DNA from: Candidatus Latescibacterota bacterium
Lineage (GTDB): Bacteria > Latescibacterota > UBA2968 > UBA8231
Length of the DNA: 64,000 bases
Reading direction: 5' to 3'
Assembly: GCA_965197905.1 (NCBI GenBank)
Contig: CBDAOB010000004.1
Span: forward strand, 544,001-608,000
Each line of letters begins with the position of its first letter. Positions within the stretch are counted from its first letter, which is position 1. Position numbers and translations under genes: made by a program. The notes under the pieces were generated by a model, which saw only the letters and a list, made by a program, of their open reading frames with translations, ran no database searches and was not told the origin of the DNA. Positions 25,546 through 52,334 of the stretch are shown piece after piece.

Positions 25546-25586
25546 ATGCTTTCAGCGTCGTCGACGAGGTCGGTTTACAGTCAATC

Positions 25587-31583: not shown

Positions 31584-34385
31584 CTACTTGGTCTGTGCAC
31601 GAAAAACCAGATCTTCCGGTGGGTTCAGGGCGTACTCTTCGCAGCGGTCGGCGTAGAGTGCGGACGGACCGTCGGTTGGATCGACTTCGAGAGCCTCTTT
31701 GAATCGGGTGCCGGCCAAGGCAAAATCGAAGTCCTCGTACGCCTTCATCGCACTGCCGTAGATCTCCAAAACTTCCAGCTTTTGCGGGCTCAGCTCACCT
31801 TTTCGATCGAGGATCTCGTATGCCACAACGGGTTCTTCTTTTCCCATTACCTGTATCAAGTCGAGTTTGCGCGCCTCGACCAAGTCGCTGACCTGCTCGT
31901 AGATCACATCGTTCACCATGATCGCGGTCCCGTACATCTTCTGTCCGCTCTCGAAGCGAGCTGCCAGATTCACCGTATCACCCATCATCGTGTAGTCAAC
32001 GCGCCCCCTGGAGCCCATGTTACCGACGATCATCGGTCCCGAGGTGAGCCCCATACGGACGTGGGCAAAAAGGCGTCCCTGTTTCTCCCATCGCTCGCGT
32101 AGTTGGTGTAGTGCGACCGGGAGTGTCTCGCTCTCTTCCCAACGCTGCCTGAGCTCCACGAGCTTGCGCTGTTGGTCTATACACGATAGACAGGCGCGCA
32201 CGGCGTGGTCCTCATAGACGACCGGGGCTCCGAAGAAAGCCACGATGGCATCCCCTTCGAACTTATCTATCGTGCCGCCGTAGTACTCGACGATGTCGCA
32301 CATCTCGCTGAGGTACTCGTTGATGAAGGCCACGAGTTCCCCGGGAGTGAGGCATTCGGAGATGGTAGAGAAACTGGCAATATCGGAGAAGAAGGCCGTC
32401 ATCACCCTCTCCTCTCCTCCAAGCTGACCAACCATACCAGGGTTGTTCATGATCTGATCGACCACGGCCGGCGACAGGTAGTGTCCGAAAGCCCCTTGCA
32501 CGAACTCCTTTTCTTGTTCCTTGATGACATACCCGTAGATCGTTAGGGCAAGATATCCGACCACGAGCATCATCATGGGACCGATCATTTCGAGCCACAT
32601 GCCGCCATGGGTGAACGCGGCGAAAGTCGCGATCGCGTAAATGAGGACGACCGCGAGAATCAAGAAGGCACCGATTAGCACCTTGAGGCGAGGCACGATG
32701 ACAGACAGCAGGATTCCAAGGCCCACGATCAGCGCGGCATTGAGCCACGGGGAAACCCGGCGGATGAACTTCTCTTGCAGAATCGTGTTGAACACGTTCG
32801 GGTAGATCCCGACCATCGGATAGGATCCTTCAAACGGAGTTACACTCAAGTCTGTTGTTCCCGGTGCCGTCAAACCGTAAAACAGAATCTTCTGGTCGAC
32901 TTCCGACGGCGTGATCATTCTATCCTGGAAGACCTTGTAGGGGTAGAAGTACAGCGGGCGCTCGTCGGGGGAAATGAGGCCATCCGACAACAATGACCGA
33001 ACGAAATATTCGCTCTGGCGCAGGTCGTTTCGATCGTGGCCGGGCAGCAATGTCTCGAGCCGTTCTGGATTCAAACTTGGATCTTGGCGGAGAAAATCAA
33101 CCATCGAATTGTTTCGCTGTATCTGTTGAAACAACCGTAGCTGGTCGGCGTTGGGATCGGCAACCCCTTTTGAGCGCCAGAAATCCTCGGCGCCGAGCTC
33201 CTTGTCGCGCGTGACCGCACGTTCAATGCCGGATGCCTGAAACCATGTCACCAGGGCGGTCCTGTTGGCTGCGCGATCGCCGAAACCTTCCTTCGCCAAC
33301 TCCCCGGGGATGGCACGCGGATTCCGAGCTTTGCCGGGATCGGATGCTACGATCGCTTTGACGCGGTTGAGGAGCTGTTGCTGTTGGTGCCGTTGAGCTG
33401 CCCGCCGAAGGGCAATATGAGGATAGTGCACAAAACACTCAGCCCAACCGCCGGCCCAGTTGACGTTCATATTGCCGAATTCGTCGATGGGAATTTCGAT
33501 GTCCCGAACGGTCTCGGCGTTCACCTGCGCACCCGGCAGCAGGATATGGCTTCCGGGCCACACCTCCGCCGTTTCTATCGGAACCCGCATAAAATCGCAT
33601 GCCATCAACAACGCGATCGATGGGAAAACGACATCCTTGTACTGATAGACGAGTGGGTACCTGCGACGGGCACCGTCAACATCGTGAACCGTTTGGGCGT
33701 AGGCGAAACCACGGGTCACATCGCGCAATAGCTTCAGCGGCGGCTCAAAGTCGAATCCGCGCCATATAGTACTTTCCTCGGGATTCACCATCAGTTTTGG
33801 CGACCGTTTGCGGATGATAGCCAGGGCTTCTTCCTGGTCCGGAGTCAAGGTCTCCATCTTTGCAAGCACGGCTTCCTTGTGTAGATCGTCGTGCGGCACG
33901 ACGACCGTTTGGGCCAGGTACACGTTGTCCGCTTTCTCTATTGTGCGTTCGAACAGTGCATCGTAGTCAGCGCGGTCCAACAGGCTGCCAACCGATGCGC
34001 TGTCGATCCGCGAGAGCTCGGAAATCTGATCCGAAGAGATCAGCTTTGTGCTTGGCTCGATGAAATAGACATCAAACCCTACCAGCTTCGCGCCGTAGTC
34101 GCTGAGGATGCTCACCACTTCCGTATATTTGTCGCGCGTCCAGTCTTGATACCTGCCTTCCACCTCGACGCTTTTGAGGTCGATGTCGATGGTGCCCAGC
34201 CTGGGATCTGTGGGCAGCAGGCCGAAGATGTTGTTGCGGATATTGAAGCGCCAATCGTAGGTGACCAGCTCGGCCCGTTCGTACACTTTGCTCTGCGAAA
34301 ACAGCAGCACCAGCAGGGCCACGATTGGACCGAGAAGAAGCTGCAGTTTACTCTGGTCGCCGCCCTTCTTTTCTTCTTCCGCCAT
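31584..34385 (-). CDS. CHASE2-domain class III adenylate cyclase
   Basis: N-terminal TM, CHASE2 (DVDGARRRYPL), three TMs, FFSDIASF, DKFEGDA, DYTMMGDTVNLAARFES with Lys/Thr ATP-specifying residues. Confidence 0.92.
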   Translation of the reverse strand: MAEEEKKGGDQSKLQLLLGPIVALLVLLFSQSKVYERAELVTYDWRFNIRNNIFGLLPTDPRLGTIDIDLKSVEVEGRYQDWTRDKYTEVVSILSDYGAKLVGFDVYFIEPSTKLISSDQISELSRIDSASVGSLLDRADYDALFERTIEKADNVYLAQTVVVPHDDLHKEAVLAKMETLTPDQEEALAIIRKRSPKLMVNPEESTIWRGFDFEPPLKLLRDVTRGFAYAQTVHDVDGARRRYPLVYQYKDVVFPSIALLMACDFMRVPIETAEVWPGSHILLPGAQVNAETVRDIEIPIDEFGNMNVNWAGGWAECFVHYPHIALRRAAQRHQQQQLLNRVKAIVASDPGKARNPRAIPGELAKEGFGDRAANRTALVTWFQASGIERAVTRDKELGAEDFWRSKGVADPNADQLRLFQQIQRNNSMVDFLRQDPSLNPERLETLLPGHDRNDLRQSEYFVRSLLSDGLISPDERPLYFYPYKVFQDRMITPSEVDQKILFYGLTAPGTTDLSVTPFEGSYPMVGIYPNVFNTILQEKFIRRVSPWLNAALIVGLGILLSVIVPRLKVLIGAFLILAVVLIYAIATFAAFTHGGMWLEMIGPMMMLVVGYLALTIYGYVIKEQEKEFVQGAFGHYLSPAVVDQIMNNPGMVGQLGGEERVMTAFFSDIASFSTISECLTPGELVAFINEYLSEMCDIVEYYGGTIDKFEGDAIVAFFGAPVVYEDHAVRACLSCIDQQRKLVELRQRWEESETLPVALHQLRERWEKQGRLFAHVRMGLTSGPMIVGNMGSRGRVDYTMMGDTVNLAARFESGQKMYGTAIMVNDVIYEQVSDLVEARKLDLIQVMGKEEPVVAYEILDRKGELSPQKLEVLEIYGSAMKAYEDFDFALAGTRFKEALEVDPTDGPSALYADRCEEYALNPPEDLVFRAQTK

Positions 34386-34429
34386 CGTCGCTGGAATCTC
34401 CTAGGTGTTGCCAACAAGTGCCCAAATAT

Positions 34430-34470
34430 AAAAAAACCGGAAGGCAGGGGAATTTGATCCCGCCCTCCGG
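34430..34470 (-). terminator. Intrinsic terminator
   Basis: Minus strand CCGGAGGGCGGGA...CCCCTGCCTTCCGG followed by T7. Confidence 0.7.
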
Positions 34471-34490
34471 CTATATTCGACGCTAAACCT

Positions 34491-34654
34491 AGTAGCCTGT
34501 CGCGGAAATAGCTTATGGAATTCGGGCGCCGAGGCGCCCGGCCCGCAAGGCGCCTGCACGCGCCGTACTGGTCGAGTACGGCGAGTGCAGGCAACGCCAG
34601 GGGTCGGGATGGATCGGCGCCCGAAAACGCAATGTATTTATGCGACAGGACACT
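34491..34654. repeat. MITE-like fold-back element (~165 bp)
   Basis: Nested inverted repeats CCTGTCGC/GCGACAGG, TTCGGGCGCCGA/TCGGCGCCCGAA, GCCTGCAC/GTGCAGGC, CGCCGTACT/AGTACGGCG. Confidence 0.7.
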
Positions 34655-34661
34655 GTATCGC

Positions 34662-35180
34662 TCAGGGACCCAGTTGGGTCAATTTCTCCTGGGCTTTCGC
34701 CCCCCACGATGTCGACGAATGCTGGGTCGCCAGCCGGGTGTAGTAGCCCCGAGCTTCTCCGATTTGGCCCAATTTCTCGTAACATTGTCCGACGAAGTAG
34801 GTCTGTTTCGGAACGGTGTCCGCCTTCGGATTACGCGCGATGCTCTCCTTCAAGGTGTCGATCGCTTTTTTCAGCTTGTCCTGACTGGGATAGCGTTTGC
34901 CACCTTTGTAATAAAGCTTGTCGAGGATGTTGTCCGTGGCCTCAGCACCGCGCACACCTGCCACGGTGACCGTCTCTTGCAGCTTGAACTCTTCCTCTTT
35001 AACCATGTCATCGACTTGGGTCCAAACCGTGTTGAGCCATTCGTCATCGACATCCTCGCCGCTCGCCGGCGGTGCCGTCTCGGAAGACGCTTCGTCGGTT
35101 TCAGCTGCCCACGCCGATTGGAAACCACCGGCGATCAACGCCAGAAGCGCCAGTAAGAAAAACCAATTGAGCCGTTTCAT
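34662..35180 (-). CDS. Small secreted TPR protein
   Basis: Signal peptide, TVAGVRGAE motif, C-terminal TPR. Confidence 0.8.
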   Translation of the reverse strand: MKRLNWFFLLALLALIAGGFQSAWAAETDEASSETAPPASGEDVDDEWLNTVWTQVDDMVKEEEFKLQETVTVAGVRGAEATDNILDKLYYKGGKRYPSQDKLKKAIDTLKESIARNPKADTVPKQTYFVGQCYEKLGQIGEARGYYTRLATQHSSTSWGAKAQEKLTQLGP

Positions 35181-35360
35181 TTTTCTTTCCTCCTACTTGG
35201 AAAGGTCAGGTCCAATGTTCGCCTTTACCATCAATATCGTTCTTTTTGGCCCGAGAAAACATGATCTGGATCACGAAGGTCGAACTAAATTTTATACCCT
35301 GGCCAAACCGGTCCGGAACACAGTCGTTGAGATGGGCAACAAAACAGTCCTAAATTACTG

Positions 35361-38300
35361 TTATTCAACAAATTGCAGGTATCCTTCGTAGCGATCGTCC
35401 ATCTCTACCGCCTGCTGATATATCACCGCTGCTTCGTTGCGTCGGCCCTGCAGAAAACGCACGATAGCCATATTCAGACGCACACCGGCATGCTCCGGCA
35501 TCAGCTCCTCGGCTTGCTCCAACATCTTATACGCCGCGTCGAAGTCGCCGCGCTTGGCCAGGGCTACACCCTTGGAGTTGTAGGCGTGCCCCATCTCGGG
35601 AGAGCTACGGATTATTCGGTCGAAACGTTCGATGGCGCGGTCTATCTCGCCCTGATTCAGGTAGGAGGTAGCGACGCGGAAATTCTCCTCAACGGATTCT
35701 ACGCTGGCCAGGAAATCGAGCAGCCCTTCGTAGGAATCGTCTTGGTCGATCACCTGCTGGTACAACACATCTGCCTTCTGGTGCTCGCCCTTGAGATAGT
35801 GGACGAGAGCCACGTTCAAACGGAATCCCAGCTGCTCCGGCACCAGAGCGGCTGCCGCTTCGAACATCGACAGGGCTTCGTCGAACTGCCCCTTCCTGGT
35901 AAGCACCACTCCCTTGGCGTTGATCGCGTCGGCGTATTTGGGATCGGCCTGCAGCGCCGCGTCGAACTGCTGCAGCGCCTGGTCCAGCCGCAGTTGCCTA
36001 AGGTAACTGGCCCCGATCTCGTAGGACTCCTGGGCTTCACCCACTGAAGCCAGGAAATCGAACAGCTCCATGTAGGAATCGTCCGTCGCAACTACTTCTT
36101 CGAACAGCCGGTCCGCCTTTTCGCGCTCGCCTTTCAGGTAGTAGGTCAGCGCGATGTTCATGCGCACCCCGTTGTTCTCGGCGATCTGCAGCGATTCGCG
36201 ATAGAAGGTCAACGCGCCGTCGAAATCTTCCTGTCGCGTCAAGACTACACCTGTGGCATTGAGAGCGTCGGCGTGGTCGGGATCCATGCTGAGAACGCGA
36301 GCAAACATCGCGGACGCCTTCTCGAGATGATTCACCCTCAGGTAGGCGGCCCCGGCATCGTAAGCTCCCTCCGGTGTTTCGAGGGAAACGGCGCTGGAAA
36401 GGGCGATCTGATCGACCCGGTCGTCGAAGAACTGCAGATCCTTTTCCAATAGGCTGTCCAATGCGGCAACATCCGGAAGACTAATCTGCGTTGGAGAGAG
36501 GGCAGCCGGTTTGTAAACTTGCAGCCAGTTCTGCACGTAGACTTCGTCGACCAATTGTCGGGGTTTAAGACGTTTGTATTCCGCAACACCGTTGCGCCAG
36601 GCATCGGCGAAGGTGAAGCCGAACATGGTCGTCTCCACCGGAATCCAGACCCGGCCTTCCCACGCCACGTATTCGGATGAACTCACGAAGTGGTCCGGTG
36701 CCCGATCGGGCGGTATGCCGGTATCGAACATCAGATAGATGTGCCCCTTCCCCGGATCATTTGCTTCCAGGAACGCCGTGTCGATGCTGAGATTCTCCAG
36801 CATGGAGGCGTAGAGCACAGTCAGGTCATCGCAGTCGCCAATCTTGGTGTCGACCCCTTCCGGCATTTCCAGCAACTCGCTGGGATATTGCACGGTGTCG
36901 AAGATGGTTTTGTCGTCCGAAATGCTGGTGAATGGGGTTTTCTGATCGGCTTGGTAGCGGATCTTGTAGACGCCCATCGCATCGAACAGGACAGCCGCTT
37001 TGCCCATGTTGGAGCGATTGAACTTCGTTGTGAGCACGTCGTTGTAACGCTGCACCAATCCACGTGCCATCCCGGCCACTGCAAGGTCAGCGGGGGTCAC
37101 GAAAGCAGCCGCCATGCCGGGTATGTTCCAGCTCAATTTGCCGCGTCCGGCCACGTAAACCCGCTCCAACTGTTTCTCCACAGCCTGTTCGCGCCGGTTT
37201 CGAGAATAGGTCACCCGGACGATGGGGGTCACGAAATTGTCGAAGTAGGCTTCCGGTCGGTTGAACAGATCGGGATCGAACGTCACGTTGAAGGCGTACT
37301 TTTCGGTGCTCTGGGGAGGCAGCAGTACCTCCTCCTGATGCGGTACGCTCATGACCTTGGGCAGCATCAGACTCACGGTGACCGCGATCGGCTCTGGAGC
37401 CGAGTTGCCCAACACCACGTCGGCGAACTCGATCTCCTCGTAGTGCCGATACAAGGATCGAAAGATCGGCGACGGCCTGATCGTCGCATCCTTGATGGTC
37501 ACGACCTTGGGGTTGTAGGAAAGGATCAGTGAGCTGTAATGAGTTGCACCCAACTCCGGATGTGTCTCGTAGGCGTACTCCACCTGCGCGAAACGATGTT
37601 TCACGCCAATCCCGAACGCAGCGGTTGTACCGTCGGCGAAACTCTCCGGTGTGTCGCGCTCGCTTTTCAAGCCGGCCCGTAAGGCCAGGAGGCCGCGAAA
37701 CCAGTATTCGGCACCCACCCGATAGTGATCGTCGATCTCCGCCGCCAGGGTCAACCCTTCGATCGGTTTGTACGCGGCTCCAAGCCGGTAGTGCGCTGGA
37801 AATATCTCTTCACTGGTGCCGCCGTTGTGTTCGAGGGAAGTGCCACCGAGATCCTGGGCCGCAAATCCCAGGCGCACGCCGTACGGAAGCGGAGCCAGAA
37901 AACTCAGGTCCCAGCCCCAACCGGACGCGTTCAGGACTTCCTGCTCGTCCAGATCGATCCCCTGCGAAATGTATTTTCCCCGGACGCCGACGGCCAGATT
38001 GCCGATGTACGGTTTCAACCGTTGGATGCTGTTCCGATAGCCGTAGGCGAAGCCGATCTTGTTCTGGCTCGACTTCAAACCCAGGCCGGATTCCACGTCG
38101 TCGAAGCCCTCCCTGAACCAGTCGATCCCCAGGGCGTGGTTGTCCTTGACCGGTAGCAGATATCCCAGGTAGGAATCCGATAGCAGGCTGAAGCGATCCG
38201 CGTAACCGAAAGCCGCCTCCTGACGCTGCAGCGACGCCAAACCCGCGGGATTCCAGGTCACGGCAGTGGCATCGTTGGCAACGGCGACGAAGGCTCCTCC

Positions 38301-38414
38301 CATGGAGATCGCACGCACCCCAACTTCCACCTGTTTTGCCGTTTCGGCATGGGCAACAGTACCCGTAACCGCCAGCAATCCCAGAATCAGCAATCTCGGA
38401 GGAACCCGTATCAT
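35361..38414 (-). CDS. PorV/FadL-like beta-barrel plus transglutaminase-like domain plus TPR repeats
   Basis: GVRAISMGGAFVAVANDATAVTWNPAGL; GDCDD...GHIY...PVETT; multiple TPRs. Confidence 0.85.
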   Translation of the reverse strand: MIRVPPRLLILGLLAVTGTVAHAETAKQVEVGVRAISMGGAFVAVANDATAVTWNPAGLASLQRQEAAFGYADRFSLLSDSYLGYLLPVKDNHALGIDWFREGFDDVESGLGLKSSQNKIGFAYGYRNSIQRLKPYIGNLAVGVRGKYISQGIDLDEQEVLNASGWGWDLSFLAPLPYGVRLGFAAQDLGGTSLEHNGGTSEEIFPAHYRLGAAYKPIEGLTLAAEIDDHYRVGAEYWFRGLLALRAGLKSERDTPESFADGTTAAFGIGVKHRFAQVEYAYETHPELGATHYSSLILSYNPKVVTIKDATIRPSPIFRSLYRHYEEIEFADVVLGNSAPEPIAVTVSLMLPKVMSVPHQEEVLLPPQSTEKYAFNVTFDPDLFNRPEAYFDNFVTPIVRVTYSRNRREQAVEKQLERVYVAGRGKLSWNIPGMAAAFVTPADLAVAGMARGLVQRYNDVLTTKFNRSNMGKAAVLFDAMGVYKIRYQADQKTPFTSISDDKTIFDTVQYPSELLEMPEGVDTKIGDCDDLTVLYASMLENLSIDTAFLEANDPGKGHIYLMFDTGIPPDRAPDHFVSSSEYVAWEGRVWIPVETTMFGFTFADAWRNGVAEYKRLKPRQLVDEVYVQNWLQVYKPAALSPTQISLPDVAALDSLLEKDLQFFDDRVDQIALSSAVSLETPEGAYDAGAAYLRVNHLEKASAMFARVLSMDPDHADALNATGVVLTRQEDFDGALTFYRESLQIAENNGVRMNIALTYYLKGEREKADRLFEEVVATDDSYMELFDFLASVGEAQESYEIGASYLRQLRLDQALQQFDAALQADPKYADAINAKGVVLTRKGQFDEALSMFEAAAALVPEQLGFRLNVALVHYLKGEHQKADVLYQQVIDQDDSYEGLLDFLASVESVEENFRVATSYLNQGEIDRAIERFDRIIRSSPEMGHAYNSKGVALAKRGDFDAAYKMLEQAEELMPEHAGVRLNMAIVRFLQGRRNEAAVIYQQAVEMDDRYEGYLQFVE

Positions 38415-38417
38415 TAT

Positions 38418-39878
38418 CTATTGTTCCAGCACGGTTAGGGAATCGCCGGCGCTCAAATTCGTTTGTGTGACCGGAAGCTGGCTTCCGGGAAATAACACCG
38501 CGACGGTGTACGGACCGGCCGGCGCACCGAAGATGAGCTCAGTGTTGCTTTGACCGGCGCTGACCTGTCGGTAGGCTCGCAGCTCGCCCGTCGCCGAATC
38601 CAGCAGGCGGACCCGGGCACCGATCCCGTCCACATTACTACCCCCCGCTGCGGGTCCCAGCCCGCGCACGCGGATGCGGAGGAACTGATCCGCGGCGGTA
38701 TCGTTCTGGAACAGTCGGTTTCCCGGATCGAATGTGCCGCCGAAACCGCTGCTGGCGTATACGTCGGGAGAGCCGTTGCTGTCGTAATCCGCCCACCCGG
38801 CGGCCATGTGAAACGATATACCCGTGGGCAAGCCGGCCTCGGCTGTAGCATTGCGGAAGGTGCCATCGCCATTGCTGGCGAAGAGCACATCGGGCTGCGG
38901 CTGTTTGTCTCCTCCATTGGCCAGAAAGAGATCCTGGTTGCCATCCCCATCGTAATCCGCCCACGCCACTGAGGCGGTTATCCACCCCGATCCGCTGTCG
39001 CGAACGTTTGCATCACCGGCAACATCGACGAATTGATCGTTGCCGTCGTTCCGAAACAGCGCGTTGCCGCCTACGTTGCCCAGGTAGAGATCCATATCCC
39101 CATCATTGTCGTAGTCTGCCCATGCCCCGCTCTGACCTATCTCCCGACTGCCGATGCTCGCGGCGCAAGCCACGGCAGCAAAACTTCCGTCGGTGGTCAG
39201 ATCGTTGCGAAACAACCCGTTTTCCTGTTCACGATTGGTTACGTAGACGTCGAGATCCCCGTCATCGTCATAGTCGACCCAATCGACATGTTGGGAATCC
39301 CTCTTGTCGGCAATCCCAATTCCAGTGACCGATGCAAATGTGCCATCTCCGACATTGCGATAGAGCTCGTTGTCGAAGTAATATTTGCCGAGGTAGATAT
39401 CCAGGTTGCCGTCCAGGTCGTAATCGCCCCAGTCGACGGAATTGACGGATCCGCGAGTTTCCCTATTTATCGATCCTCTGGCGCGACCTATCTCTTGAAA
39501 CCCGCTCTCACCGTTCTCGTAGAGAAAATCCTGGTCGAAGAAATCGGCCACGTAGAGATCTAGATCGCCGTCGTTGTCGAAGTCTGCCCATGCAGCGGCG
39601 GTACTGTTGTTCTTGTTGTCAACACCCAATTCGACAGCGACGTCGGTAAACGTGCCATCGCCGTCATTCCGATACAGGGCGTTTGCGGGAACCGAAACAG
39701 CGGTGGCCCAGTTGGTGACGTAGAGATCGGGGTCTCCATCGCCATCGTAGTCTCCCCACGCCAGCCCGGTGCTGTAAAGGCCCTGGTTTCCGGTACCCGC
39801 AATCTCCGTCGCTTCTTGGAAGGTTTGGGCAACCGCCGTGCCAGCTAGAAACAGTGTTGTGAAAACGATTCTTTTCAT
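38418..39878 (-). CDS. Secreted CRTAC1-like FG-GAP/VCBS repeat protein with ASPIC/UnbV-like C-terminus
   Basis: Seven WxDYDxDGDxDLYV-type repeats; NVDGIGARV. Confidence 0.88.
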   Translation of the reverse strand: MKRIVFTTLFLAGTAVAQTFQEATEIAGTGNQGLYSTGLAWGDYDGDGDPDLYVTNWATAVSVPANALYRNDGDGTFTDVAVELGVDNKNNSTAAAWADFDNDGDLDLYVADFFDQDFLYENGESGFQEIGRARGSINRETRGSVNSVDWGDYDLDGNLDIYLGKYYFDNELYRNVGDGTFASVTGIGIADKRDSQHVDWVDYDDDGDLDVYVTNREQENGLFRNDLTTDGSFAAVACAASIGSREIGQSGAWADYDNDGDMDLYLGNVGGNALFRNDGNDQFVDVAGDANVRDSGSGWITASVAWADYDGDGNQDLFLANGGDKQPQPDVLFASNGDGTFRNATAEAGLPTGISFHMAAGWADYDSNGSPDVYASSGFGGTFDPGNRLFQNDTAADQFLRIRVRGLGPAAGGSNVDGIGARVRLLDSATGELRAYRQVSAGQSNTELIFGAPAGPYTVAVLFPGSQLPVTQTNLSAGDSLTVLEQ

Positions 39879-41107
39879 GGTCTACTTAATCACAGCGACG
39901 ACCTTCTCCTGCTTCGTATCGCCGGCATTGACGACGACGATGTAGAGCCCGCTGGAAACAGTGTTGCGGTCTTCGTCCCTTCCGTCCCACTCGAATGACG
40001 CTCTGCCTGGCGCCAGCGCACGGTCGCGGACGATCACCCGCTCCAAGCGACCTGAGGCGTTGTAGACGCGAACGGTCACATTCGCCGGACCGGTGAGATC
40101 GAACGAAATGTCGGTCTCCCTCTTGAACCTCGTGCCGCCTGGCGCGAAGGCTCGAGGCTGACAGTCCAATTGCCGAATAGCGAGCTTGCCTACCTGGGTA
40201 CGCAGATCCTGGAAGATCGCGAAAGTACCCAACGCGTCGATCGCCGTGGTCACTTCCCGGCTGCTGGCATCTGCGACTCCACCTACCCGACCCCATGCGC
40301 CGCCGGACAACGCGAACACGGCGAGCTTCGAGGGATCCCCTACTGCTGCTGATTCATCGCCGGAATAAGCAACGGTCAGTGTCACCGGTTTGCGCAGGGT
40401 CGCACCCGGCGCCGAGATTGCGAAGGCTCGGCTGATTCGGGTCAGCTCGGAGTCCTGCACATTGCGTTTCGCCGGAGGATCGGCCGCAGGACGAATCAGG
40501 ACCTCGCTGGTCCCTCCTTCCAGCGCGTTGGGAGGGAAGTATAGCTCGACGCTGCCTTCCGGATTCGTGATGGTGCCACCCAGCGCAGCATTGGCAAGTC
40601 GTGCCGCCGTGCGGAAACGAAAGTTGAACCCGCTCTCCGCCAGCTGCCCAAGCACCTCTCTTGACATCTCGATTTGGTACTCCGTGAACGCCTGCAGTCC
40701 CCCTTCTGGCGAAAAGGAGATCGTGGTCCCGCTGTCATCGGCTCCGAATCCTGTAATCGGCACGACCTCTTCAGCTGCCTCGAGATCTCCGAGGGCGCGG
40801 GCAAGCAGCAGAAAGTCGGTCTGCAGTTGCCGCGCCACACTCCCCGAGAAAACCACCTGGATAGTCGGCGTCGCGGATGAGACTCCTTCCTCATCCGCTT
40901 CGGGTCGAGTCGCCACCACTTCGGGAATCTGCGTGCGGAAGTCCCACTGACGATCTGGCCTAGCGGCCCCCAAGGGACCGTACAACCTGGAGGTGACGAG
41001 CGCCTGGTAGGCGTTGCCGGACAGGAAATCGATTTCCGGGAACAACACCGTAAACGTGGTTGCGTCGTAGCCGAAAGCGAGCTTGGGTCAAATGGTGTGT
41101 AAACGAC

Positions 41108-44100
41108 TCAGGCGGCAATCTTCTTCCTTTGCGCGATGTGTGATCCATTTTCGTAGCGCACATTGGCGTACACGTCAGCCATAAGATGCGGTGCACGGAG
41201 TCGGCGAAATCGTTTCTCGGCCACCATCAGTACCCGCCATATGAGGGCGGTGGCATTGGCCACCTTCTTGTAGCGCTTGGCCGCATTGGTTCGCAGCCGT
41301 ACCGAAGCGAAGGGACTTTCAACGACGTTGGTAGTGCGCAGGTGTTGCCAGTGGGCCTCGGGAAAGTCGTAGAATGCCACCATACGGTCCCAATCGCGCT
41401 CGAGGATATCTACGGCGTCTGGGCATTCGCGGTGGAATCGTTTGGCGAATTGATCGCGGCGTTTGGTCGCGTCTTGACGGGTCGGCGCGTAGGGGATCTG
41501 TGTCAGCAGTTGCCGCGCTTCGGCCTGCACGCGTTTAGGCAGCTTATCCAACACGTTCAGGAGGCGGTGATTCCAGCACCGCTGTTCCGCCGTCTCCGGC
41601 CAGACCTGCGCCAGGGCGGCCCAAATACCCAGGTGCCCATCCGCCACCAACAACTTCGCCGCGCTCAGTCCGCGGTCACGCAAATCGCGCAGCACGCTCG
41701 TCCACGACTCCTTCGATTCGCGATAGCCTGGGACAATCGTCAAGACTTCCTTGCGCCCATCGCTCATGGCGCCGATGACCACCAGGAGAGCGGCCTTTTC
41801 TTTCTCGAGCCCGGCTTTGACGTAGTAGGGTCGGACCGGAGCGCCCTGCGCCACACGCGTGATGTGGGTTTCTCCGGCCCGCCCTCCGAACCGGACGTGC
41901 GCGTTACCACGCATCCGGCTCTCCACAAGGTGCCGTGTGACCGCAGAGTCTCATCCGGTTGTCGCAGGCCAGGGAGAAGGGATCCGCGCCGATCGATAGC
42001 GGTAACGAGTCACTGCTACTTCGCCGACGTTGTAAAGAGCAATCCCGTCCTCGGTGGGCCACCATCCTGGCAGGTAGCGGCGTTTCAGCTTCCTCCAATT
42101 AAAGCGCGGGTGCTTGCGGCGCAGCCAATGCACTACGCGGCGCCAAGTGAAGCCCCGCACGTAGTTGAAAGTGGCCTTCGACACCCCGTACTGAAAGTAG
42201 TTGGCCCACCCCCGCAACACCGGATTGAGTTGGCGCAGAAGGCTCTTCAACGGCCTCTGCCGACCCGTTCTCGTGACTGCGCGCACCGTGCTCTTCAACC
42301 GGGCCAGAGATTCCTTTCTTGGCCACGTATAGATGCGTGCGCCAACCGGGCCCGGTTTCCGTCGCTTCTGAATGCGAAAACCCAGGAAATCGAAGCCACG
42401 GCTGATGTGCGTGATGGCGGTCTTCGTCTCCGACAGGTGCAGACCCATGGGGGTGAGAGTCACCCCCGCTTGGTCGCGCAGGTCATACGCTGCAGCTTCG
42501 GTGCCCGCCACCAGCAGCACGAAATCGTCAGCGTAACGGACAAGCCGACAAGTCGGTAGCCCCTTTCGCCGATGCGCTTGTCGCGCACTGGAGGTAGCGC
42601 CCACCTTTCTCCAGACCTCAGTGAAATAATCGTCGAGGACGGATAAGGCGATATTTGCCACCAGCGGTGAGAGAATACCGCCTTGCGGAGTGCCCGAAGT
42701 GCTTTCTTGCAACACCGATTGTTCCGTGAGGACACCGGCCTTGCAGAACGCTTTTACAAGCCTCAGAACATGCTTATCACCGATACGTCGACGCACGCGG
42801 TCCAAGAGGGCTGCGTGATCAATCTCATCGAAACAAGCACGGATATCGCCCTCCACCACCCACTCATAAGAGCGGGAGCAGAATTGATGAATCTCGGCGA
42901 TGGCGTCCTGAGCCCGCCGATTCGGGCGGAAGCCGTAGGAGCACGGCTTGAAGTCCGCTTCGAAGATCGGTTCGAGCACCAGCTTGAGTGCGGCTTGGAC
43001 CACTCGGTCCCGAGCGGTTGGGATGCCGAGCCGGCGCTTCTTCGTTGTGCCAGGTTTCGGAATCAACCGCTCGCGTACGGGCAGAGGCCGGAAACTGCGG
43101 GTCTTCAGATCAACCCGCACCTCGGCGAGAAAGGCCTCCTCGCCGCGTTCCGTCTCCACAGAGTAGGCCGTTTGTCCGTCCACTCCGGCCGAACGAGCAC
43201 CCTTGTTGCTGCGCACCCGACGCCAGGCTACACTCAAAAACGCCGGGTCACACACCAGGTTGAACAGGTCGTCGAAGCACTTGCTTCGATCCTCTACAGC
43301 CCAACGGTGCAGTTTGGTCTGGATTTCCAGTACTCGATTACGGGCTTGTTCTGCCTCGGGCCACGAAGCGCTGGCATTCACCGGCGTCCTCCTGTTTTTC
43401 CAGTACCCCACTGCGCAACTTGCTGCCTCCCTTCGCCATGTAAGCGGCTTTCCCGCTCGCGGACTACTACAGAGGCTCCGTCCCTTGCCAAGCCCCACAG
43501 CGGACAGCGCGCTGCCCCGATAACGGTCGGACTCGGCTCGGTTCCCACGTTCACCATGAACCGTTTGACGGGGGAGGTGCCCAGCTTTTCCCCTGCAACT
43601 TCGCCTTGGGTACGCCGCAGGCATTCTCCAAGGCCTCTGCTTCGGTGGGTATCACACCTCCCCAGAGTCGCAGTCGGTCATATATCCGACCACGTGCGTT
43701 GCGTACCAACCCTTATCCACCAGGTTTGGGTTGGCGGGCCGCTAAAGGGGGTTCCATCACTGGTTCACTTCGGGTTACACCATTCCGTCTTGCTTGCCAG
43801 ACGTGGAGTGTCTGGAGGTGCCACTCCACTCTGTCGTTGTCGAGGCTGCTTCCACCTTCCCCTGCGCTCCCAGGGTCAGGCTGCCTCCAGCTTCAACGGG
43901 CTGCTGCGACAGCCCGTTGGTGGGTCCTTGCATCCCACCCGGTTCTCTGGCGCCTCGTGGCGCACGATCCCGTCGGCCCAGGCGTACACCAGCTCGCACT
44001 CATCCAGCCGTCGGCTGCGCCAGGCGTGGTATTCGACGATCCACTTATCCCGCAAACGCGCGATTGAGGACGGCGACAGCGGCGCTCCCGCTCCCAGCAG

Positions 44101-44487
44101 GCCGCGCAGCGCCAGCTCGAAGTCACCTTGAGACAGACCGTGCAGATACAGTTCCGGCAACAGCTGACCCACCTCCTTCGTACGCCGCGCAAACAGCGGC
44201 AGAATGGCGCTCTCGAAGCGCTCTTCCAGACCTCGCACGCGTGGACGTTTTACCTCGATCGTGCCCGAGGTACAGGACAGTCGCCGCCGCTTCCCGTAGC
44301 CATTTCGATAGCCGCCGGGTGCGTCCAACGGGGCCTGACGCTGGTAGCGCGACCGCCCCAGCACCTGCGTCACTTCTTCATCCAAAACCGACTGCATCAA
44401 AGACTGAATCTGCGACCGCGTCCACGCTTCCAACGTTTCGAACGTGGGCATGGACATTTCCGCGGTGCTCAGCTTAGGTTGTGGCAT
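41108..44487 (-). CDS. IS256 transposase, two exons (44487-43966 and 41824-41108), 412 aa when spliced
   Basis: YRNGY, WADGI|YVK, VADG, QRCWNH, RTTNVVES motifs; in frame after intron removal. Confidence 0.9.
41825..43965 (-). mobile_element. Group II intron with RT/maturase ORF
   Basis: 5' GTGCG; domain V GAGCCGGATGCGTGGTAACGCGCACGTCCGGTTC; 3' end GACCCTAC. Confidence 0.93.
41951..43381 (-). CDS. ltrA: Group II intron reverse transcriptase/maturase, no endonuclease domain
   Basis: AGVDG, RLGIPT, SYGFRP, GTPQGG, RYADD, LRGWANYF; GTG start after an AGGAGG RBS. Confidence 0.93.
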   Translation of the reverse strand: MNASASWPEAEQARNRVLEIQTKLHRWAVEDRSKCFDDLFNLVCDPAFLSVAWRRVRSNKGARSAGVDGQTAYSVETERGEEAFLAEVRVDLKTRSFRPLPVRERLIPKPGTTKKRRLGIPTARDRVVQAALKLVLEPIFEADFKPCSYGFRPNRRAQDAIAEIHQFCSRSYEWVVEGDIRACFDEIDHAALLDRVRRRIGDKHVLRLVKAFCKAGVLTEQSVLQESTSGTPQGGILSPLVANIALSVLDDYFTEVWRKVGATSSARQAHRRKGLPTCRLVRYADDFVLLVAGTEAAAYDLRDQAGVTLTPMGLHLSETKTAITHISRGFDFLGFRIQKRRKPGPVGARIYTWPRKESLARLKSTVRAVTRTGRQRPLKSLLRQLNPVLRGWANYFQYGVSKATFNYVRGFTWRRVVHWLRRKHPRFNWRKLKRRYLPGWWPTEDGIALYNVGEVAVTRYRYRSARIPSPWPATTG

Positions 44488-45095
44488 GGCGATTCTCCTC
44501 TTCCTGCCGGGACAGCCCCGGCGCGTGTAATGTCTAATTACAAAGGAAGGGTAGGATCGCCTTCTGTGTATTTCCACACCTTTTGATTATAGCTCCCGAA
44601 AGCGGAGGCCTCCAAAGGCAGCGAATCCCCACTCTGACTGAGTCGCAGATTCTGGGGTGTAATCAGATCCTGGCTGATCGGGCCCGTAAACACCACCTGC
44701 ACCCGCTGTCGACCAGACGTTATGGTTGCTTCATCTCCCGGAACGGTGCGGGTGATATCCGGAATGCGTGTGCTGAACTCCCAGGCGAAATCCCCCACGT
44801 CCTGCTGCAGAGGTCCGCCGGCGACGGACGCGATCTGCAAGCGGTAGTTCGTCCCTGCCCGCAGCCCTCCTACGGGGGCGAGCGTCACGGTGTTGGTGTT
44901 GGAATTGTAAGCGGGTCCACCCCCCACGAGGTCGACGGCAATACCCTGCTGCAACATTGAGACGTTGCCCGTCAGAAGTAGGGCAGTTTCATCCAGGGGG
45001 CTGTCGAATACCGCGGTGACCGACATTGAAAGATCTGCGATCGAGGTGTCGCCAGACGCAGGAGCAACACTCGCCAGGGCTGGCACGTCTGTCTG

Positions 45096-46656
45096 GAACT
45101 GCCAGGACACCGGGATGTCGGGACCAAGAGGCCCACTGACTCCAGGGGCGATCTGAATGTTATAGCGACTACCTACCTGCCAACCGCTCGCCGGTGCGAG
45201 TCCGTAGCGCCCCGCTCCCCGGTCTACCGGATCGCCGGACCGCAGCGGCAAATTCACGCCTTCACGCGCGATTATGAAGTTTTCGGCGACCACCTGATCC
45301 GCATCGATCGGCACCGTGAACTGGACCGTAGCTTCGACCTGGCTGACCGCGACGTCGACGGCGTTCGAGTCAGGCTCCACATCGACCACTCGCGGTATGG
45401 CGGTATCGAAACGCCAGGAGATGGACTGACCGAGACCCAGGGGCCCACTCACTCCGGGAGCGATACGTACGCGGTAGGCGCTGCCCGCGTTCCAGCCAGC
45501 TTCGGGCGCAAAAGCGTAGCGAGCGTCCCCCCGATCTACCGGATCTCCGGACCGCAACGGCAGATTCACCCCGTCGCGTGCGATGGTGAAGTTTTCGGCG
45601 ACCACCTGATCCGCATCGATCGGCACCGTGAACTGGACCGTAGCTTCAATCTGGCTGACCGGGACGTCGACAGCGTTCGAATCGGGTTCCACATCGACCA
45701 CTCGCGGTATGGCGGTATCGAAACGCCAGGAGATGGGCTGACCGAGACCCAGGGGCCCACTCACCCCGGGAGCGATGCGCACGCGGTAGGCACTACCCGC
45801 GTTCCAGCCAGCTTCGGGCGCAAAAGCGTAGCGACCGTCCCCCCGGTCTACCGGATCTCCGGACCGTAGCGGCAGGTTCACCCCGTCGCGTGCGATGGTG
45901 AAGTTTTCGGCGACCACCTGATCCGCATCGATCGGCACCGTGAACTGGACCGTAGCTTCAATCTGGCTGACCGGGACGTCGACAGCGTTTGAATCGGGTT
46001 CCACATCGACCACTCGCGGTATGGCGGTATCGAAACGCCAGGAGATGGGCTGACCGAGACCCAGGGGCCCACTCACCCCGGGAGCGATGCGCACGCGGTA
46101 GGCGCTGCCTGCGTTCCAGCCAGCTTCAGGCGCAAAAGCGTAGCGAGCGTCCCCCCGATCTACAGGATCACCGGGCCGCAACGGCAGGTTCACCCCGTCG
46201 CGCGAGATAGTGAAGTTTTCGGCGACCACCTGATCCGCATCGATCGGCACCGTGAACTGGACCGTAGCTTCGACCTGGCTGACCGAGACATCGACGGCGT
46301 TCGAGTCGGGCTCCACATCGACCACTCGAGGTATCGCGGTCTCGAAACGCCAGGAGATGGGCTGGTCTTGTCCCAGGGGCCCACTCACCCCGGGAGCTAT
46401 GCGCACGCGGTAGGCGCTACCCGCGTTCCATCCAGCTTCGGGCGCGAGCCCGTAACGACCGTCCCCCCGGTCTACCGGATCACCGGGACGCAGGGTTAGG
46501 AGCTCGGCGCCGCGCAAGAGTTGGAAGTTGTCCGCTGTCAGCTTGTCTGCATCGATCGGAACGCTGAACAGGACGGATGCCTCGTCCAGATCAACGGTGA
46601 TTCCCTGGGCATCCGCCTCGGGAGTGAGCGAAACCACTCGCGGAACGGCCGTGCTG
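45096..46656 (-). repeat. Tandem 312-bp (104-aa) Ig-domain repeats, about five units
   Basis: GAAACGCCAGGAG recurs at 45408, 45720, 46032 and 46344; central units nearly identical. Confidence 0.92.
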
Positions 46657-49541
46657 AAGCGCAGCGCGTACGGACCATCTCTTTGCGGTCCTCCGATGGC
46701 GCGGGGCAGGCGCACTGTATAGCTGCTTCCAGCGCGCAATCCCCCCTGCGCCTCGATCCGAACCGTCTGGGTTTCGGGGTTGTATTCTAGGGTTTGGATA
46801 GCACGTTGCTCGCCACCTTCCAGAACGGCCACAGCGTCCGCGGTCAACGCGCTGCCGTCGACCGGATTGTCGAACTGAAGAACCAAGGCCGTCGTCGAGG
46901 CCAGCACGGTCGTGTCCCCTTCGGCCGGCACCGATCCGGACAGATTTGGAACGGGTGTCTGGAAGCTCCAGCTGTAGTCGCCCTCCCCCAGTCTCAGGGT
47001 CCCGCCGAGAAGACTCGCCAGCACAACCTGGTAACGCGTTCCGGGTTTCAGACCGTCGACTAGGGCGAAACTGAGGGTATTGTTCTCCGCGCTGAAGACC
47101 GGCGTCTCCAATAATGGCTGCGCTTCGTCCTCGGCCAGGACCTGAACGGCATTCGGATCGGCCGCCAGAAGCCCGGTCAGGATGGGTGTATCGAACGTGG
47201 CCGTCAGCCGGCCGTCCTCCAGGGAGGTTCCAATCTCGTTGTCGGGCGGCACCGTAGACAACAACGCTGGAACGCGGGTGCTGAAGCGTACAATGCTGGC
47301 ATTGTCTGGACGATTCCCCACCAGATCAGCGATGGCCGCCGAAACCTCGACCTCATAGGTCGAACCCGGGAGCAATCCCCCTTCCGGCAGCAGAGTTACC
47401 CTGCGCGCATCCGCATCGTAGGAAGGATCTGTCAGTTGTGCTAGGGGGGAAACCCCCAGGCGGATGACAAAATTGTCGGCCGTGACCCCAAGGGGATCGA
47501 TCGGTTCCGAAAAGGTGAGAGTGACCTGGCTTGTGGTTGCTGGGATCTCGCTGGCTCCATCCGAGGGCTCGCTCGCTATTAATCGCGGCGTCTCCGTGTC
47601 TACCAGGAAAACATCGGTCGAGTCGAACCGGGCCAATGCGTTGAGTCGTCGATCTCGCGCGCCGCTCACCGAAAGTGTCGCGTTTCCTGAAGGATGCGCG
47701 CTGGTGATCGTAAGCTCGCCCGTCCAGGTGTCTGCAGTGAACTGCAACTGCTGGAAAGCGATCACGCTATCTCCGATTGAAGCCGTCACCGCGGGCGGAC
47801 TCGTGGGGTCGAGGCCCGAATGTTCATCTAGAATCTGCAGCGCCAGGGTGAGGGTCTGTCCAATGCCTACCTGGTTCTTACTCAGGTTTACCCCAGCAAT
47901 AGTTGGCGCGATGGTATCGACGATAAAGCTGGCCGGATCGCTCCAGTCGGACCGGGCCCAACCGTCATCCACCGCCTGCACGGACCAGTAGTAGGTTCCG
48001 CTGGGCAACCCGTTCAAGTCCTGGAAGAGATTGTTTCCGGCGGATCCCGGACCGACCGCCTGGTTGCCCGAGAGAACATTGTCGGCGCCGCGGGAGGTTC
48101 CCACACGGACATTGTAGGTGAGGCTCTGTGGCGTCGAGTCGTTGTCGTCCAGTCCCAGCTCCCAGGTCAGACGGACGGTGCTTGCAGAATCGACGGCACC
48201 CACGACTATGGGTACCCGGGGATTGGTGTTGCGATTGAACTGCGATTCCAGGTTGTCGTTGATCGTCGTGCTGGGCGAGAACCCCGCGTCGCGACCGGCG
48301 GAAAAGAGATCCAGATCTCCGTCGCCATCGTGGTCGACCGGTGCGAGCGAGCTGAAATCGACCCCTGTGAGGACAAGGATGTTCTCGATCTCAAATCCTG
48401 AGTCGGTATTTTCGTAGATCTGCAGGAAGGGGGCCTCGCCATTGTTGCCCGCCAACACGAGATCCAGGTCCTGATCGTTGTCGTAATCTCCCCAGACAAT
48501 GTCGCCTCCCCGCATTCCGGTAAGTTGAACACCGTCCAGGAGTGTAAAATCTCCATTGCCGTCGTTGGTGTAGATCTCCGTGGTGACACCGGTCTCGGCA
48601 ATGCCGCCGACAGCGAGGTCCATGTCGCCGTCCCCATCCACATCTCCCCACGCCAGGTCGCTGGACTCCAACGCTGTCAGGGTTTGTTCGACGTTGATCA
48701 ATGACCCGGACTCGTTGCGCGCGAGAATGAAGCGACGGGCGCCGCTGACAGCACTGCCATTTGCGGCCACGTCGAGGTCACCGTCTCCATCCATATCCGC
48801 GAAGGCTACTTCGCCGTTGTTGAGGCCCTCCAAACCAAAGTCGCCGTCTTCGAAATCTCCGAGACCGTCGTTGATCAGTACGCGGGTGTAGGATTGTATC
48901 ACCCCGTCGATGACATCGTCACTCTGCCCCAACACGGCGAGATCCAGATCGCCATCATTGTCCACATCCCCCCAATCCGCCGAGCTTGATGACAGATTTT
49001 GTAGCTCGGAGCCGAGGCTGAGGTTCCATTGGCCGCCGTCCGAATCCGCCAGGTAGAGCGCGCCGCCCCGATTCTCAAAGCTATCCTCGCCTAACACGAC
49101 CAGATCGAGGTCACCATCGTTGTCCGCGTCCCCCCATGCGGCGTCGCCGTTTTGCAGCGGTTGTATATTGGCGTCGTTTGTGATGGAGAGGCCTGAAGTA
49201 GCATTCTCATAGACCAGTGACTGGGCTTCGCCGCTTCGATTTTGACCGGTGATGGCTAAATCCACATCGCCGTCGTTGTCGTAGTCTCCCCAGTCCATTG
49301 CACTCGATTGCAGGGACCGGAGGATTTGATTGGAAGAGACGAACTGCTGGACGTTTAGAATATCCTCCTGCGACCATTCCGAGCGTGCGAGCCCGCCGTC
49401 TATCGTCTGAACGGACCAGAAGTAGGTGTCCCCTGCGCCAGGGGGCGCTGTAGAACCTTGGTGGTCTTGAATCCGGCATTTCCGATTTCCAGCGGAATTT
49501 CGCCCGATACGATGTCGTTGCCGCCGGAAACGGTCCCGATG

Positions 49542-50290
49542 GTAGGGTCGAGAACTGGCGCGCCAGCCTTAGGGTTCGGTGGGTTCCCCATGGCTTTCGC
49601 CATAGCCCTCAGTCCGACTCCCATCGCTACGTTTCCAGTTCCCGCCGCCTCAAACCGGACGTGCGGATCTCCCGCATCCGGCTTCCCGACGAACGTCACA
49701 TCCAGGCACACGCCACAAGGACTTCACCTGGTAGTCAAGCTGCTTCCGATGCATACTAGTCTTACTGCTGGAGGCAATAGGCTCACGCCACTCTCCAACC
49801 CTCTGCACTTCCGCAGCATGTCCGAAGTCAGGCCCCTTCCCTCCACCGGAGTTACCCGGCTTCCTCGGTACTACGCGCCTGTCCGCCACCTCATCCAGCC
49901 CAGTCTGGCCCTCGCGGGTTACCGGTTGGAGGCACTCGCTGCTTCCACCGGATGAGGCTTCCCGTGTTGCGCCACATCTCCTCTTACACACATGCTGTCG
50001 CCACTACCCCGGCGGAACAGCTGGGTGCGCTTGTCGCTCGACTTCCCCAGCTGCAGCGGCCTTCCCTGGTTTACGGGCAGGTCGGCTTCCGCATTACACT
50101 TTTCGAGGCCTGCTCAGCGTTTACTCACGTTACGGCCTGTGTGCTCGCCAAGTCGCCCAAGGCGACCCTCTACACCGGAGGCTTCAGCGGCTTCGTCGCC
50201 TCCACCACTGCTCCGATTGCTACCGGCTGGAGCGACCCTTGCCGGGTGGGATTCGCACCCACTGAAGATGTGCGCCTTAGCACGGCGCAC
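49542..50290 (-). ncRNA. ORF-less group II intron (749 nt)
   Basis: 5' GTGCG; domain V AAGCCGGATGCGGGAGATCCGCACGTCCGGTTT; 3' GACCCTAC; removal restores the host frame. Confidence 0.9.
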
Positions 50291-51788
50291 CGCAAATTGT
50301 ATGTTAGTGTTGAACTCTCGGCGTCATTTCCGGGACCCCAGCTGAACAGCACGCTCTCGCTGGTAACCCTGGCGGAATTTAGCCGTTGCGGTGGCGACGG
50401 CGCCCCGTTGGTGACCGTAGTACCCACGTTCGAGTAGAGCGTGCTGAAGCGCTGACCGTCAGCGTCAACGCCGGCCAGGAGCAAATCTGCCTTGCCGTCC
50501 GCATCGTAATCAGACCAGGCGGTCGCGCCTCCGGCTAGACCCGAAAGATTGGTTTCATCCGACGCACCGGTTACCTGGCCTTCATCGTTGCGAAACACGA
50601 ACGCCTGATACACGGACAGGATTGAGAGGCCCGACGCCGCCAGATCCAGATCACCGTCATTGTCGTAATCGATCCACGCGAGACGCCCAGCAACGCGCCG
50701 AGTGGTTGGCAGCGAAAACGACTCGTCGAGGTTGAATACGCCCGTGGGCCGGTTTCGATAGATCTGGAAAACGGCGTTCCAAGAATTGTCCCGACCCGAT
50801 ATAGCAAGATCGGAGTTTCCGTCGCCGTCATAGTCTCCCCATGCAACCGAGCCACCTTTGACGGGGGTCGAAACGTTTACAGTCGCATCGAGCGTTAGAG
50901 ACCCCACCGGTTCATTCTTGTAAAATTCGGTGACGGAACCAAGGCCACCCGAGGTTGTGACGTTGTTGCCCGATAAAATCAAGTCCAGATCACCATCGTT
51001 GTCGTAATCCCCCCAATCGGCATCGCCATTGTGGACGCTGACCAGATTCTCAGAGTTCACCTGGTCTTGTTCGAGAAGGCCACTGGTATTGGTATAAAGG
51101 CGGGTCAGGGACGTTCCGTTTTCTTCCATCCCCAGCACCAGCAAATCGAGATCGCCATCGTTGTCCGCATCTCCCCACTCAATGGTCGCGTAACGAACTC
51201 CGCGGAGGGTAGGGCTCCCAGTCTCGTCTATCTGTGTTCGATCGACACTCAAGATTCGCTCGCCGGGACCAGACGCTCCGTCTTCGTTCACATAAAGGCG
51301 CAGACTCTCCTCGTTTTGGACGTCCCAGCCCGCGACAGCCAGATCCCGGTCGCCGTCGTTGTCGTAGTCTCCCCACGCCACGTCACCATGATATACACCG
51401 ACCAGCTGAACCTGTGCCAAATCTTGAAAGAGGAGTGACTCGTCGTTGCGGTAGATTCTGGCGATGCGTGCGCATGCACCATTTTCGTCCACGATCTCGC
51501 CGACGATGGCCAGATCCGGATCGCCGTCGTTGTCGTAGTCCGACCATGAAGCCTGCCCGGCCCAAACGCCCGGAAGCGATTGCGGGGTGGACTCGAGGCT
51601 TTGAGAACCGATCGGGACTGCGTAAGCGAGCAACCCGATCAGTAGCGAGCGCAGCAAGATGGACATGGAGTTACTGTTGTGTGTAAAGTTTCGCGCCGAA
51701 TTGGCGAAAAGCAGGGAAGCTTTTCCGTTGCCGTCCCAAGTATAGCTAGGGCGGAATGATAAGCCAAGAATCATTTCCAGGGGCTGAA

Positions 51789-52334
51789 TCATAGCGCTTC
51801 CACGTCGTCCATATCGAGCTCGGCAGACACCGCGGTATTGAGAATCGTCACATTGAGCACGATGCGAAACGATTCCTTGCGTTTGGAGACCTTGCCGGTG
51901 ACGCCGCTCAGCGGCCCCCTGACAACTCGCACATGCCTGCCCCTCTTGAGCAAGGGGTATAGGACCAGATCGGTACCGCTGGAGGTTGCCCGATGTATGT
52001 TCGCCAACTCAGCTAGCAGTCGCCCCTGATCGATGACCTCAATGGTTCGCACCAGGTACCCGCTGCGCAACACGGCGAGCCGTTCCTCCCGGCTGCAGCA
52101 ACCGAACAAATATCCCGGAAGCAACGGGACATCGAAGCTGTATTTCCGCTTGCCGGATTGTCCGCTGCTCTTGCGGAGCGGTAGGTAATGTCTGACGTCC
52201 GCATCGAAGCAAGTGCTGGCCACTTTTTTTTCGCACCTTGGACGGGAGTGGAAGACATACCACTCTCGCTCGCCGTCAGCTGGGGTGAAAAGCCGGGCAA
52301 CAGCATCCTCTGGGGAAAGAGCGGCGTCCGTCAG
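51789..52334 (-). CDS. NusG paralogue (UpxY/RfaH-like antiterminator)
   Basis: WYVFHSRPRCEKKV, PLLPGYLF, KOW motif VRVVRGPLSGVTG; start probably CTG at 52334. Confidence 0.85.
   Translation of the reverse strand: MTDAALSPEDAVARLFTPADGEREWYVFHSRPRCEKKVASTCFDADVRHYLPLRKSSGQSGKRKYSFDVPLLPGYLFGCCSREERLAVLRSGYLVRTIEVIDQGRLLAELANIHRATSSGTDLVLYPLLKRGRHVRVVRGPLSGVTGKVSKRKESFRIVLNVTILNTAVSAELDMDDVEAL

Follow-up and report, generated by a model that had tools for sequence, protein, structure and literature searches.

A stretch of 64,000 nucleotides (nt) from a Candidatus Latescibacterota bacterium (assembly GCA_965197905.1, contig CBDAOB010000004.1; hereafter the window) carries a module whose four core genes encode a giant protein with a FlgD-type tail, a fusion of a PorV-family barrel to a transglutaminase-like cysteine enzyme, a small secreted tetratricopeptide repeat (TPR) protein and a CHASE2 adenylate cyclase. 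The module is real, recurs across four phyla (Latescibacterota, KSB1, Zixibacteria and Marinisomatota) and is apparently undescribed: no account of it turned up in the literature searched (subscription journals mostly uncovered, supplements excluded), and the accessible part of PMC8195603 describes no such module. It would represent a variant of signalling from an outer-membrane barrel to CHASE2 receptors, and in this strain its giant gene is broken. The core genes are located as follows, in window coordinates, with the giant gene in three pieces.

31584 to 34385, minus strand: CHASE2 domain (with an insert of ~170 amino acids, aa), three transmembrane helices and a class III adenylate cyclase
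34662 to 35180, minus strand: small secreted TPR protein (172 aa) bearing W53 and an A74-G-V-R77-G loop
35361 to 38414, minus strand: fusion protein, 1017 aa, with a PorV-family barrel (~25-300), a putative immunoglobulin (Ig)-like segment, a transglutaminase-like core (C528/H558/D564) and a TPR array
39882 to 41070, minus strand: giant gene exon 3, with Big_5, ZU5 and a FlgD-type C-terminal sorting domain
44596 to 49541, minus strand: giant gene exon 2, with FG-GAP repeats, fn3 and a Big_5 Ig array containing five 312-nt repeats
50291 to 51666, minus strand: giant gene exon 1, with a signal peptide-like start and FG-GAP repeats

The initial annotation, made from the sequence alone, had picked out six co-oriented genes (these four, a NusG paralogue and an FG-GAP protein), all of which are on the minus strand where it placed them, and had proposed that they work together. 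Neighbourhood comparison bears out a conserved module, co-located in four phyla. An all-genome scan returned 555 related stretches, the best 80 of which were analysed and include KSB1, Zixibacteria and Marinisomatota records. A FlgD-tailed gene sits upstream of the fusion in all 61 loci whose flank reaches 3 kb or more, the small protein follows the fusion in 61 of the 63 loci with enough flank, and the cyclase lies within the locus in 66 of 80, with 12 of the 14 misses stopping at a contig edge and two genuine. Marinisomatota loci instead run cyclase, giant, fusion, small protein, so that linkage survives rearrangement. We also surveyed 168 genomes of the phylum, keeping in mind that kin are not independent and having dropped weak TPR-only or partial matches in G041, G044-G047, G051 and G056. 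Of these genomes, 66 have the enzyme core, 61 the N-terminal part of the cyclase and 60 the small protein; all three are present in 57 and none in 102.

That the giant is cargo of a type IX secretion system (T9SS), as had been proposed, looks right from sequence, and its secretion by this route is predicted. It has a hydrophobic N-terminus and a FlgD-type tail that exceeds the PF13860 cut-off (37.3 bits) and scores 22.9 against a cut-off of 23 for TIGR04183. Profile searches with its pieces recover FG-GAP, Big_5, fn3, ZU5 and FlgD_ig domains, and across loci the giant ranges from ~1,350 to ~2,500 aa. SprA is present in the genome itself and in five of five genomes from other phyla. The genome also holds about 60 FlgD-tail matches and at least seven PorV-family genes over the cut-off, the best of which adjoins a PorU-like C25 gene.

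The barrel of the fusion belongs to the PorV/PorQ family (NF033709, 97.1 versus 90 bits) and fails the PorV equivalog (NF033710, 38.8 versus 250). Its enzyme arm is likely periplasmic, given the topology that we take PorV to have. The Cys-His-Asp triad is intact in 79 of the 80 loci, and the sole locus with a His-to-Arg change belongs to the pair of loci that have no cyclase despite long flanks. As top profile matches, all from transglutaminase-like families, DUF553 was found in 19 and Transglut_core in 12 of 24 enzyme domains. Comparing profiles rather than folds, none of the 24 matches Peptidase_C93 (BTLCP/LapG) at E<=1; a PDB sequence search with the enzyme profile likewise returned nothing at E<=1. 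The best ESM Atlas match of the enzyme region, at 0.89, is to a transglutaminase-like cluster, which we take as a lead only. Paralogues of the Ig-enzyme-TPR cassette, with triads intact, end proteins that begin with Reg_prop/Y_Y_Y propellers or with nSTAND2 domains (the loci of the two kinds being L055, L056, L059, L060, L062; L057, L058). Most of them lack a cyclase in the vicinity, and they are often near Peptidase_M6-FlgD proteins. Such propellers act as the sensors of hybrid two-component systems. Genes for FlgD-tailed cargo are also found immediately upstream of paralogous fusions (L051, L052, L064).

The small protein is most conserved in its loop: among 57 aligned homologues R77 is present in 57, G75 in 56, and V76 and G78 in 55 each. 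A structure model (predicted local distance difference test, pLDDT, 82) shows a TPR body preceded by a hydrophobic leader, a W53-bearing helix and a loop spanning 70-80 between helices; the motif would sit in this exposed loop, where model confidence is low. A Foldseek search with the model gave nothing at E<=0.001, generic TPRs only, and the ESM Atlas matches are to uncharacterised clusters. A reading of the protein's TVAG as a LapG-type TAAG site was considered and is weakened, as SGVRG variants exist and only GVRG is near-invariant. Stand-alone paralogues with no module gene nearby occur at L085, L086 and L087.

The cyclase has one helix before CHASE2 and three after it, and is the only CHASE2 gene found in its genome. 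Because it retains the residues aligned with active class III cyclases (D668, K708, D712, T799, N806, R810) we read it as a producer of cyclic AMP (cAMP), unlike the nucleotide-binding receptor LapD, and the coupling to a cAMP-making sensor that had been suggested for the module is likely. Two HTH_Crp_2 genes score over the cut-off in this genome, both unlinked to the module. After the cyclase comes, in families f2 and f4, a convergent gene for an S41 tail-specific protease (L071-L081).

How might these four proteins work together? We lean, with somewhat better than even confidence, towards an outside-in relay from the cell surface to cAMP, of which we infer the secretion route, the barrel topology, all contacts and the direction of the signal. 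The giant would be exported by the T9SS and held on its own PorV-like barrel; a change at giant or barrel would act, via the likely periplasmic cysteine-enzyme arm, on the A-G-V-R-G loop of the small protein; the loop or a loop product would switch the cyclase; and cAMP would pass to a Crp-type protein. That the enzyme cuts at or beside R77 is a tentative proposal that we hold at less than even confidence, plain binding of the loop being the alternative. This assembly, whose giant gene is interrupted, has an intact core but would have its surface arm switched off.

A natural loss is informative in this regard. In genus g16 (G017, G117) the cyclase has been lost in situ, Arg replaces H558 and the motif has become AGVPP, with the giant intact at 2,110 aa; G118 of the same genus has none of the parts searched. 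As far as one event allows, this joint loss appears to tie catalysis to signalling rather than to display; relaxation of selection in g16 is modest only (enzyme core at 70% versus 73-88% in other genera). Several observations weigh against the relay, however. The joint loss in g16 is a single event. In G030 the fusion and the small protein are truncated and the cyclase next to them is retained, and G049 and G050 carry cyclase and enzyme domains unlinked, with the small protein not found there. Families f13 and f14, whose loci are intact, have VAARR instead of VAGVRG, so the Gly after the Arg is dispensable. Finally, the giant is broken in all three genomes of the host genus, whereas the other three core genes are intact in the host genome, G001 and G002 (the G001 contig begins within the fusion), so that the necessary input may be something other than the giant.

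This last point motivates the best of the rival explanations, one that we nevertheless consider unlikely: two separable units share one barrel, a display unit of giant plus barrel, and an envelope-state sensor of enzyme, small protein and cyclase whose input is not the giant. Losses do occur in both directions (giant broken and core intact in genus g1, core dead and giant intact in g16), and a terminator separates the cyclase in Latescibacterota. Against this stand the invariable FlgD-tailed gene upstream and the character of the g1 lesions, which differ, look recent and coexist with an allele free of the insertion sequence (IS) described below.

The transglutaminase-like profile matches, together with the FlgD-tailed cargo upstream of paralogous fusions, might instead suggest transglutaminase or transpeptidase activity: the enzyme would anchor or cross-link either cargo or the small protein, and the cyclase would monitor assembly. 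We likewise think this improbable, since the genome has a separate PorU-like/PorV pair, catalysis was lost along with the cyclase and not with the cargo, and the cassette also occurs in fusions with propeller sensors and with nSTAND2 nucleoside triphosphatases.

Less probable still is inside-out adhesin release after the fashion of Pseudomonas LapA/LapG/LapD, the system with which the initial annotation had drawn its analogy: cAMP or the periplasmic domain of the cyclase would gate the enzyme, which would cut the giant from the surface. One locus does combine a giant Ig-rich protein, a Cys-His-Asp triad in which acidic residues adjoin the Cys and a membrane protein of nucleotide signalling; a giant surface protein and a periplasmic transglutaminase-fold enzyme with this triad are likewise found in the Lap system and in Desulfovibrio DvhA/DvhG/DvhD. 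Moreover, the accessible part of PMC13090378, which covers the LapG/DvhG motif and triad, indicates that DvhG, a tethered protease with a different receptor, can effect such release. Yet, unlike those systems, the module has no Peptidase_C93 match; the 24 giants have no [T/A/P]AAG site in common (scattered or absent, with neither scanned motif in nine); the giant carries a C-terminal sorting signal, neither the N-terminal periplasmic retention module nor type I secretion; the cyclase is of the active type rather than a degenerate nucleotide-binding receptor; and the giant stays intact where the catalytic His is lost, in g16. We rate Lap-style release low because every defining feature tested except the triad failed. 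Finally, a chance neighbourhood within an envelope gene cluster, to which the host family's block among wzz, rfaE, cpoB-like and bamD genes might point, is scarcely credible, as flanking genes vary between families and phyla but the core stays, and co-occurrence and linkage counts largely refute it.

Returning to the outside-in relay, we asked whether the loop motif recurs beside other CHASE2 receptors. The cyclase matched 240 plasmid records, 10 of which were examined, all from Alphaproteobacteria, with CHASE2 confirmed by Pfam in the five scanned. A gene neighbouring the cyclase carries [AG][VI]RG in 9 of these 10 cases (seven FecR-type proteins, one CHAT protein and one CHAT-linked protein), compared to a background of 34 in 886 open reading frames (ORFs) of the module's own genome. 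Among 20 further CHASE2 loci of the phylum there are three FecR proteins with A[VI]RGT and five related SH3-M48 proteases with A[AS]IKG, the latter as a linker motif in a protease encoded directly before the CHASE2 gene (L184, L187, L189-L191); two loci have CHAT or caspase-like genes lacking the motif and ten have nothing. As a control, Arg precedes GT in none of seven anti-sigma-type FecR proteins versus 18 of 21 of the secreted type (2 of 30 loci unparsed). When the small-protein and FecR profiles are aligned locally, the match has the motif and the upstream Trp at its centre. At L197 and L199, CHASE2 genes have CHAT or caspase-like proteases with DUF4384 as neighbours.

These patterns raise a wider and, on balance, doubtful idea: that CHASE2 receptors generally read a short strand (small residue-[VI]-[RK]-G) exposed through proteolysis by a dedicated periplasmic partner, which would make the module a relay to cAMP through a protease gated by T9SS cargo. 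The exposing protease would be the barrel-tethered cysteine enzyme here and M48, CHAT or caspase-like enzymes elsewhere, with Gly-Thr self-cleavage serving in secreted FecR/NsrA-type proteins. A number of facts on the motif count against the relay itself. The motif was chosen post hoc, few independent families are involved, it is missing in 12 of the 20 other CHASE2 loci, and the eight positives represent two families. In addition, the alignment of the small-protein and FecR profiles is weak (probability 16%, E 0.0016), and two of the FecR partners from Alphaproteobacteria read RGA, no protease being seen in their vicinity.

The closest known relative of the arrangement is Sinorhizobium meliloti NsrA, which the accessible part of PMC13001267 describes as an outer-membrane barrel through which CHASE2 cyclases respond, outside-in. 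As in that system, with CyaD1/CyaD2/CyaK and Clr, an outer-membrane barrel lies upstream of a CHASE2 class III cyclase, and rhizobial FecR-TPR proteins of 1,228 aa, likely NsrA-type, adjoin such cyclases and carry AAIRGT. Unlike NsrA, the module pairs an N-terminal PorV-family barrel with an extra cysteine-enzyme domain, is linked to T9SS-type cargo and has a separate small protein instead of a FecR domain; no module protein matches PF04773, and the likeness is at the level of the motif only. With PorV, whose shuttle role alongside PorU is treated in the accessible part of PMC11611037, the module shares a barrel over the NF033709 cut-off, FlgD/type A-like-tailed cargo next door and SprA in the genome. 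It differs from PorV proper in its equivalog score and in being fused to an enzyme and TPRs, with a stand-alone PorV beside the PorU-like gene elsewhere. The parallel with FecR-type cell-surface signalling lies in the A[VIA]RGT of secreted FecR domains, at what we take to be the equivalent position. In contrast, the small protein falls outside the FecR domain family and in most cases follows RG with Ala, and a sigma factor is absent. FecR and FoxR self-cleave at Gly-Thr, although this is not essential for FoxR signalling, according to the accessible part of PMC9249621. Among sources likewise available in part, one describes the FecR protein SMc02177 as not needed for signal perception (PMC5498481). 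Other CHASE2 neighbourhoods include a LysM-FecR protein beside a CHASE2 kinase, where the factors recognised by CHASE2 are described as unknown (PMC5192318), and MtxA, with Ig and TPR domains, beside a CHASE2 cyclase (PMC4439547). On the question of what CHASE2 domains detect, the module offers a candidate ligand loop and a candidate enzyme. If the relay is true, a PorV-type barrel serves to receive signals in phyla of which very few members have been cultured.

The giant gene had been annotated as encoding a protein of ~2,500 aa. This size holds, the three exons totalling ~2,502 codons, but in this assembly the gene is not a continuous ORF: an intron, a frameshift and an IS256 element, all unmentioned there, interrupt it. 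The insertions are:

41079 to 44595, minus strand: IS256-family element within the giant gene (NF033543), with an 8-bp target duplication and inverted ends
41825 to 43965, minus strand: group II intron with reverse transcriptase/maturase inside the IS256 transposase (TIGR04416, RF00029)
49542 to 50290, minus strand: ORF-less group II intron, 749 nt (Rfam RF02003)

The ORF-less intron preserves the frame of the giant if spliced. It has 11 other full-length, near-identical copies in the genome, mostly after TTTACG/TTTGCG-like ends; copies were noted on contigs C2 and C3, with one tandem insertion on C3. The apparent frameshift in exon 2 of this assembly falls at a run of four G (49430-49433, +2 nt relative to G002). 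Contigs from runs X1 and X2 join 41070 to 44596 exactly, with 0 and 6 flank differences, and because of this precise empty-site joint we regard the IS256 insertion as a strain-level event; one of these two runs may derive from the sample behind the assembly. An IS joint without the intron is present in runs X1, X5 and X7. The composite of IS256 and intron has spread as a unit, with at least five further copies, and IS copies without the intron exist too. Run X5 (window 40675-44601) represents a close relative that has neither the IS nor a further 399 nt, in frame and corresponding to about one Ig domain. The giant of G002 has a 226-nt deletion and that of G001 a frameshifting deletion. The different lesions in G000, G001 (L234) and G002 (L031) may reflect repeated selection against a surface protein.

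Further features surround the core:

34424 to 34470, minus strand: terminator-like hairpin and U-run ahead of the cyclase (fold -33.4 kcal/mol, z -3.3)
34520 to 34627, no strand assigned: 108-nt palindromic repeat resembling repetitive extragenic palindromes (z -6.2 for 34520-34661; 15 BLAST matches in the genome)
38418 to 39878, minus strand: secreted FG-GAP repeat protein, 486 aa (PF13517 x7), accessory
51789 to 52334, minus strand: NusG/UpxY-like paralogue (NF033644 60.6 bits, cut-off 100), accessory

Intergenic distances from the giant through the FG-GAP gene, fusion and small-protein gene to the cyclase measure 3, 3, 180 and 276 nt, confirming the tight packing of the first three genes. 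The NusG paralogue and the FG-GAP protein are accessory to the core. The former, proposed as part of the module, is present in only 6 of the 11 same-family loci whose upstream side was read; NF033644 (UpxY) is its top NusG-family match, although below the cut-off. The end previously assigned to it, 52334, is a likely CTG start, which overlaps the stop of the upstream rfaE-like gene (CTGA) and has AAGGAG upstream; both CTG and AAGGAG are kept in G002. The latter is missing between giant and fusion in Marinisomatota loci and in families f13 and f14; its earlier label, CRTAC1-like, is right as to the FG-GAP repeats but not as to ASPIC/UnbV, for which there is no match at E<=0.01.

A terminator previously placed at 34430-34470 corresponds well to the hairpin and U-run at about 34424-34470, which a simple terminator scan does not list; the promoter/terminator scan performed at chance level. 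All 12 of the Latescibacterota spacers read have a similar hairpin and U-run ahead of the cyclase; the KSB1 spacer (a 6-nt gap) and the Zixibacteria spacer have none. A link between terminator and NusG paralogue was considered and rejected, as the terminator occurs with and without the paralogue. The palindromic repeat is absent from G002 and is therefore an insertion relative to it. Elsewhere in the window, three tandem HEAT-repeat genes of 466-479 aa each occupy 22709-27011, and two near-identical tRNA genes 26 kb apart (985-1058 and 27521-27594) differ in their anticodon loops, UCG and ACG.

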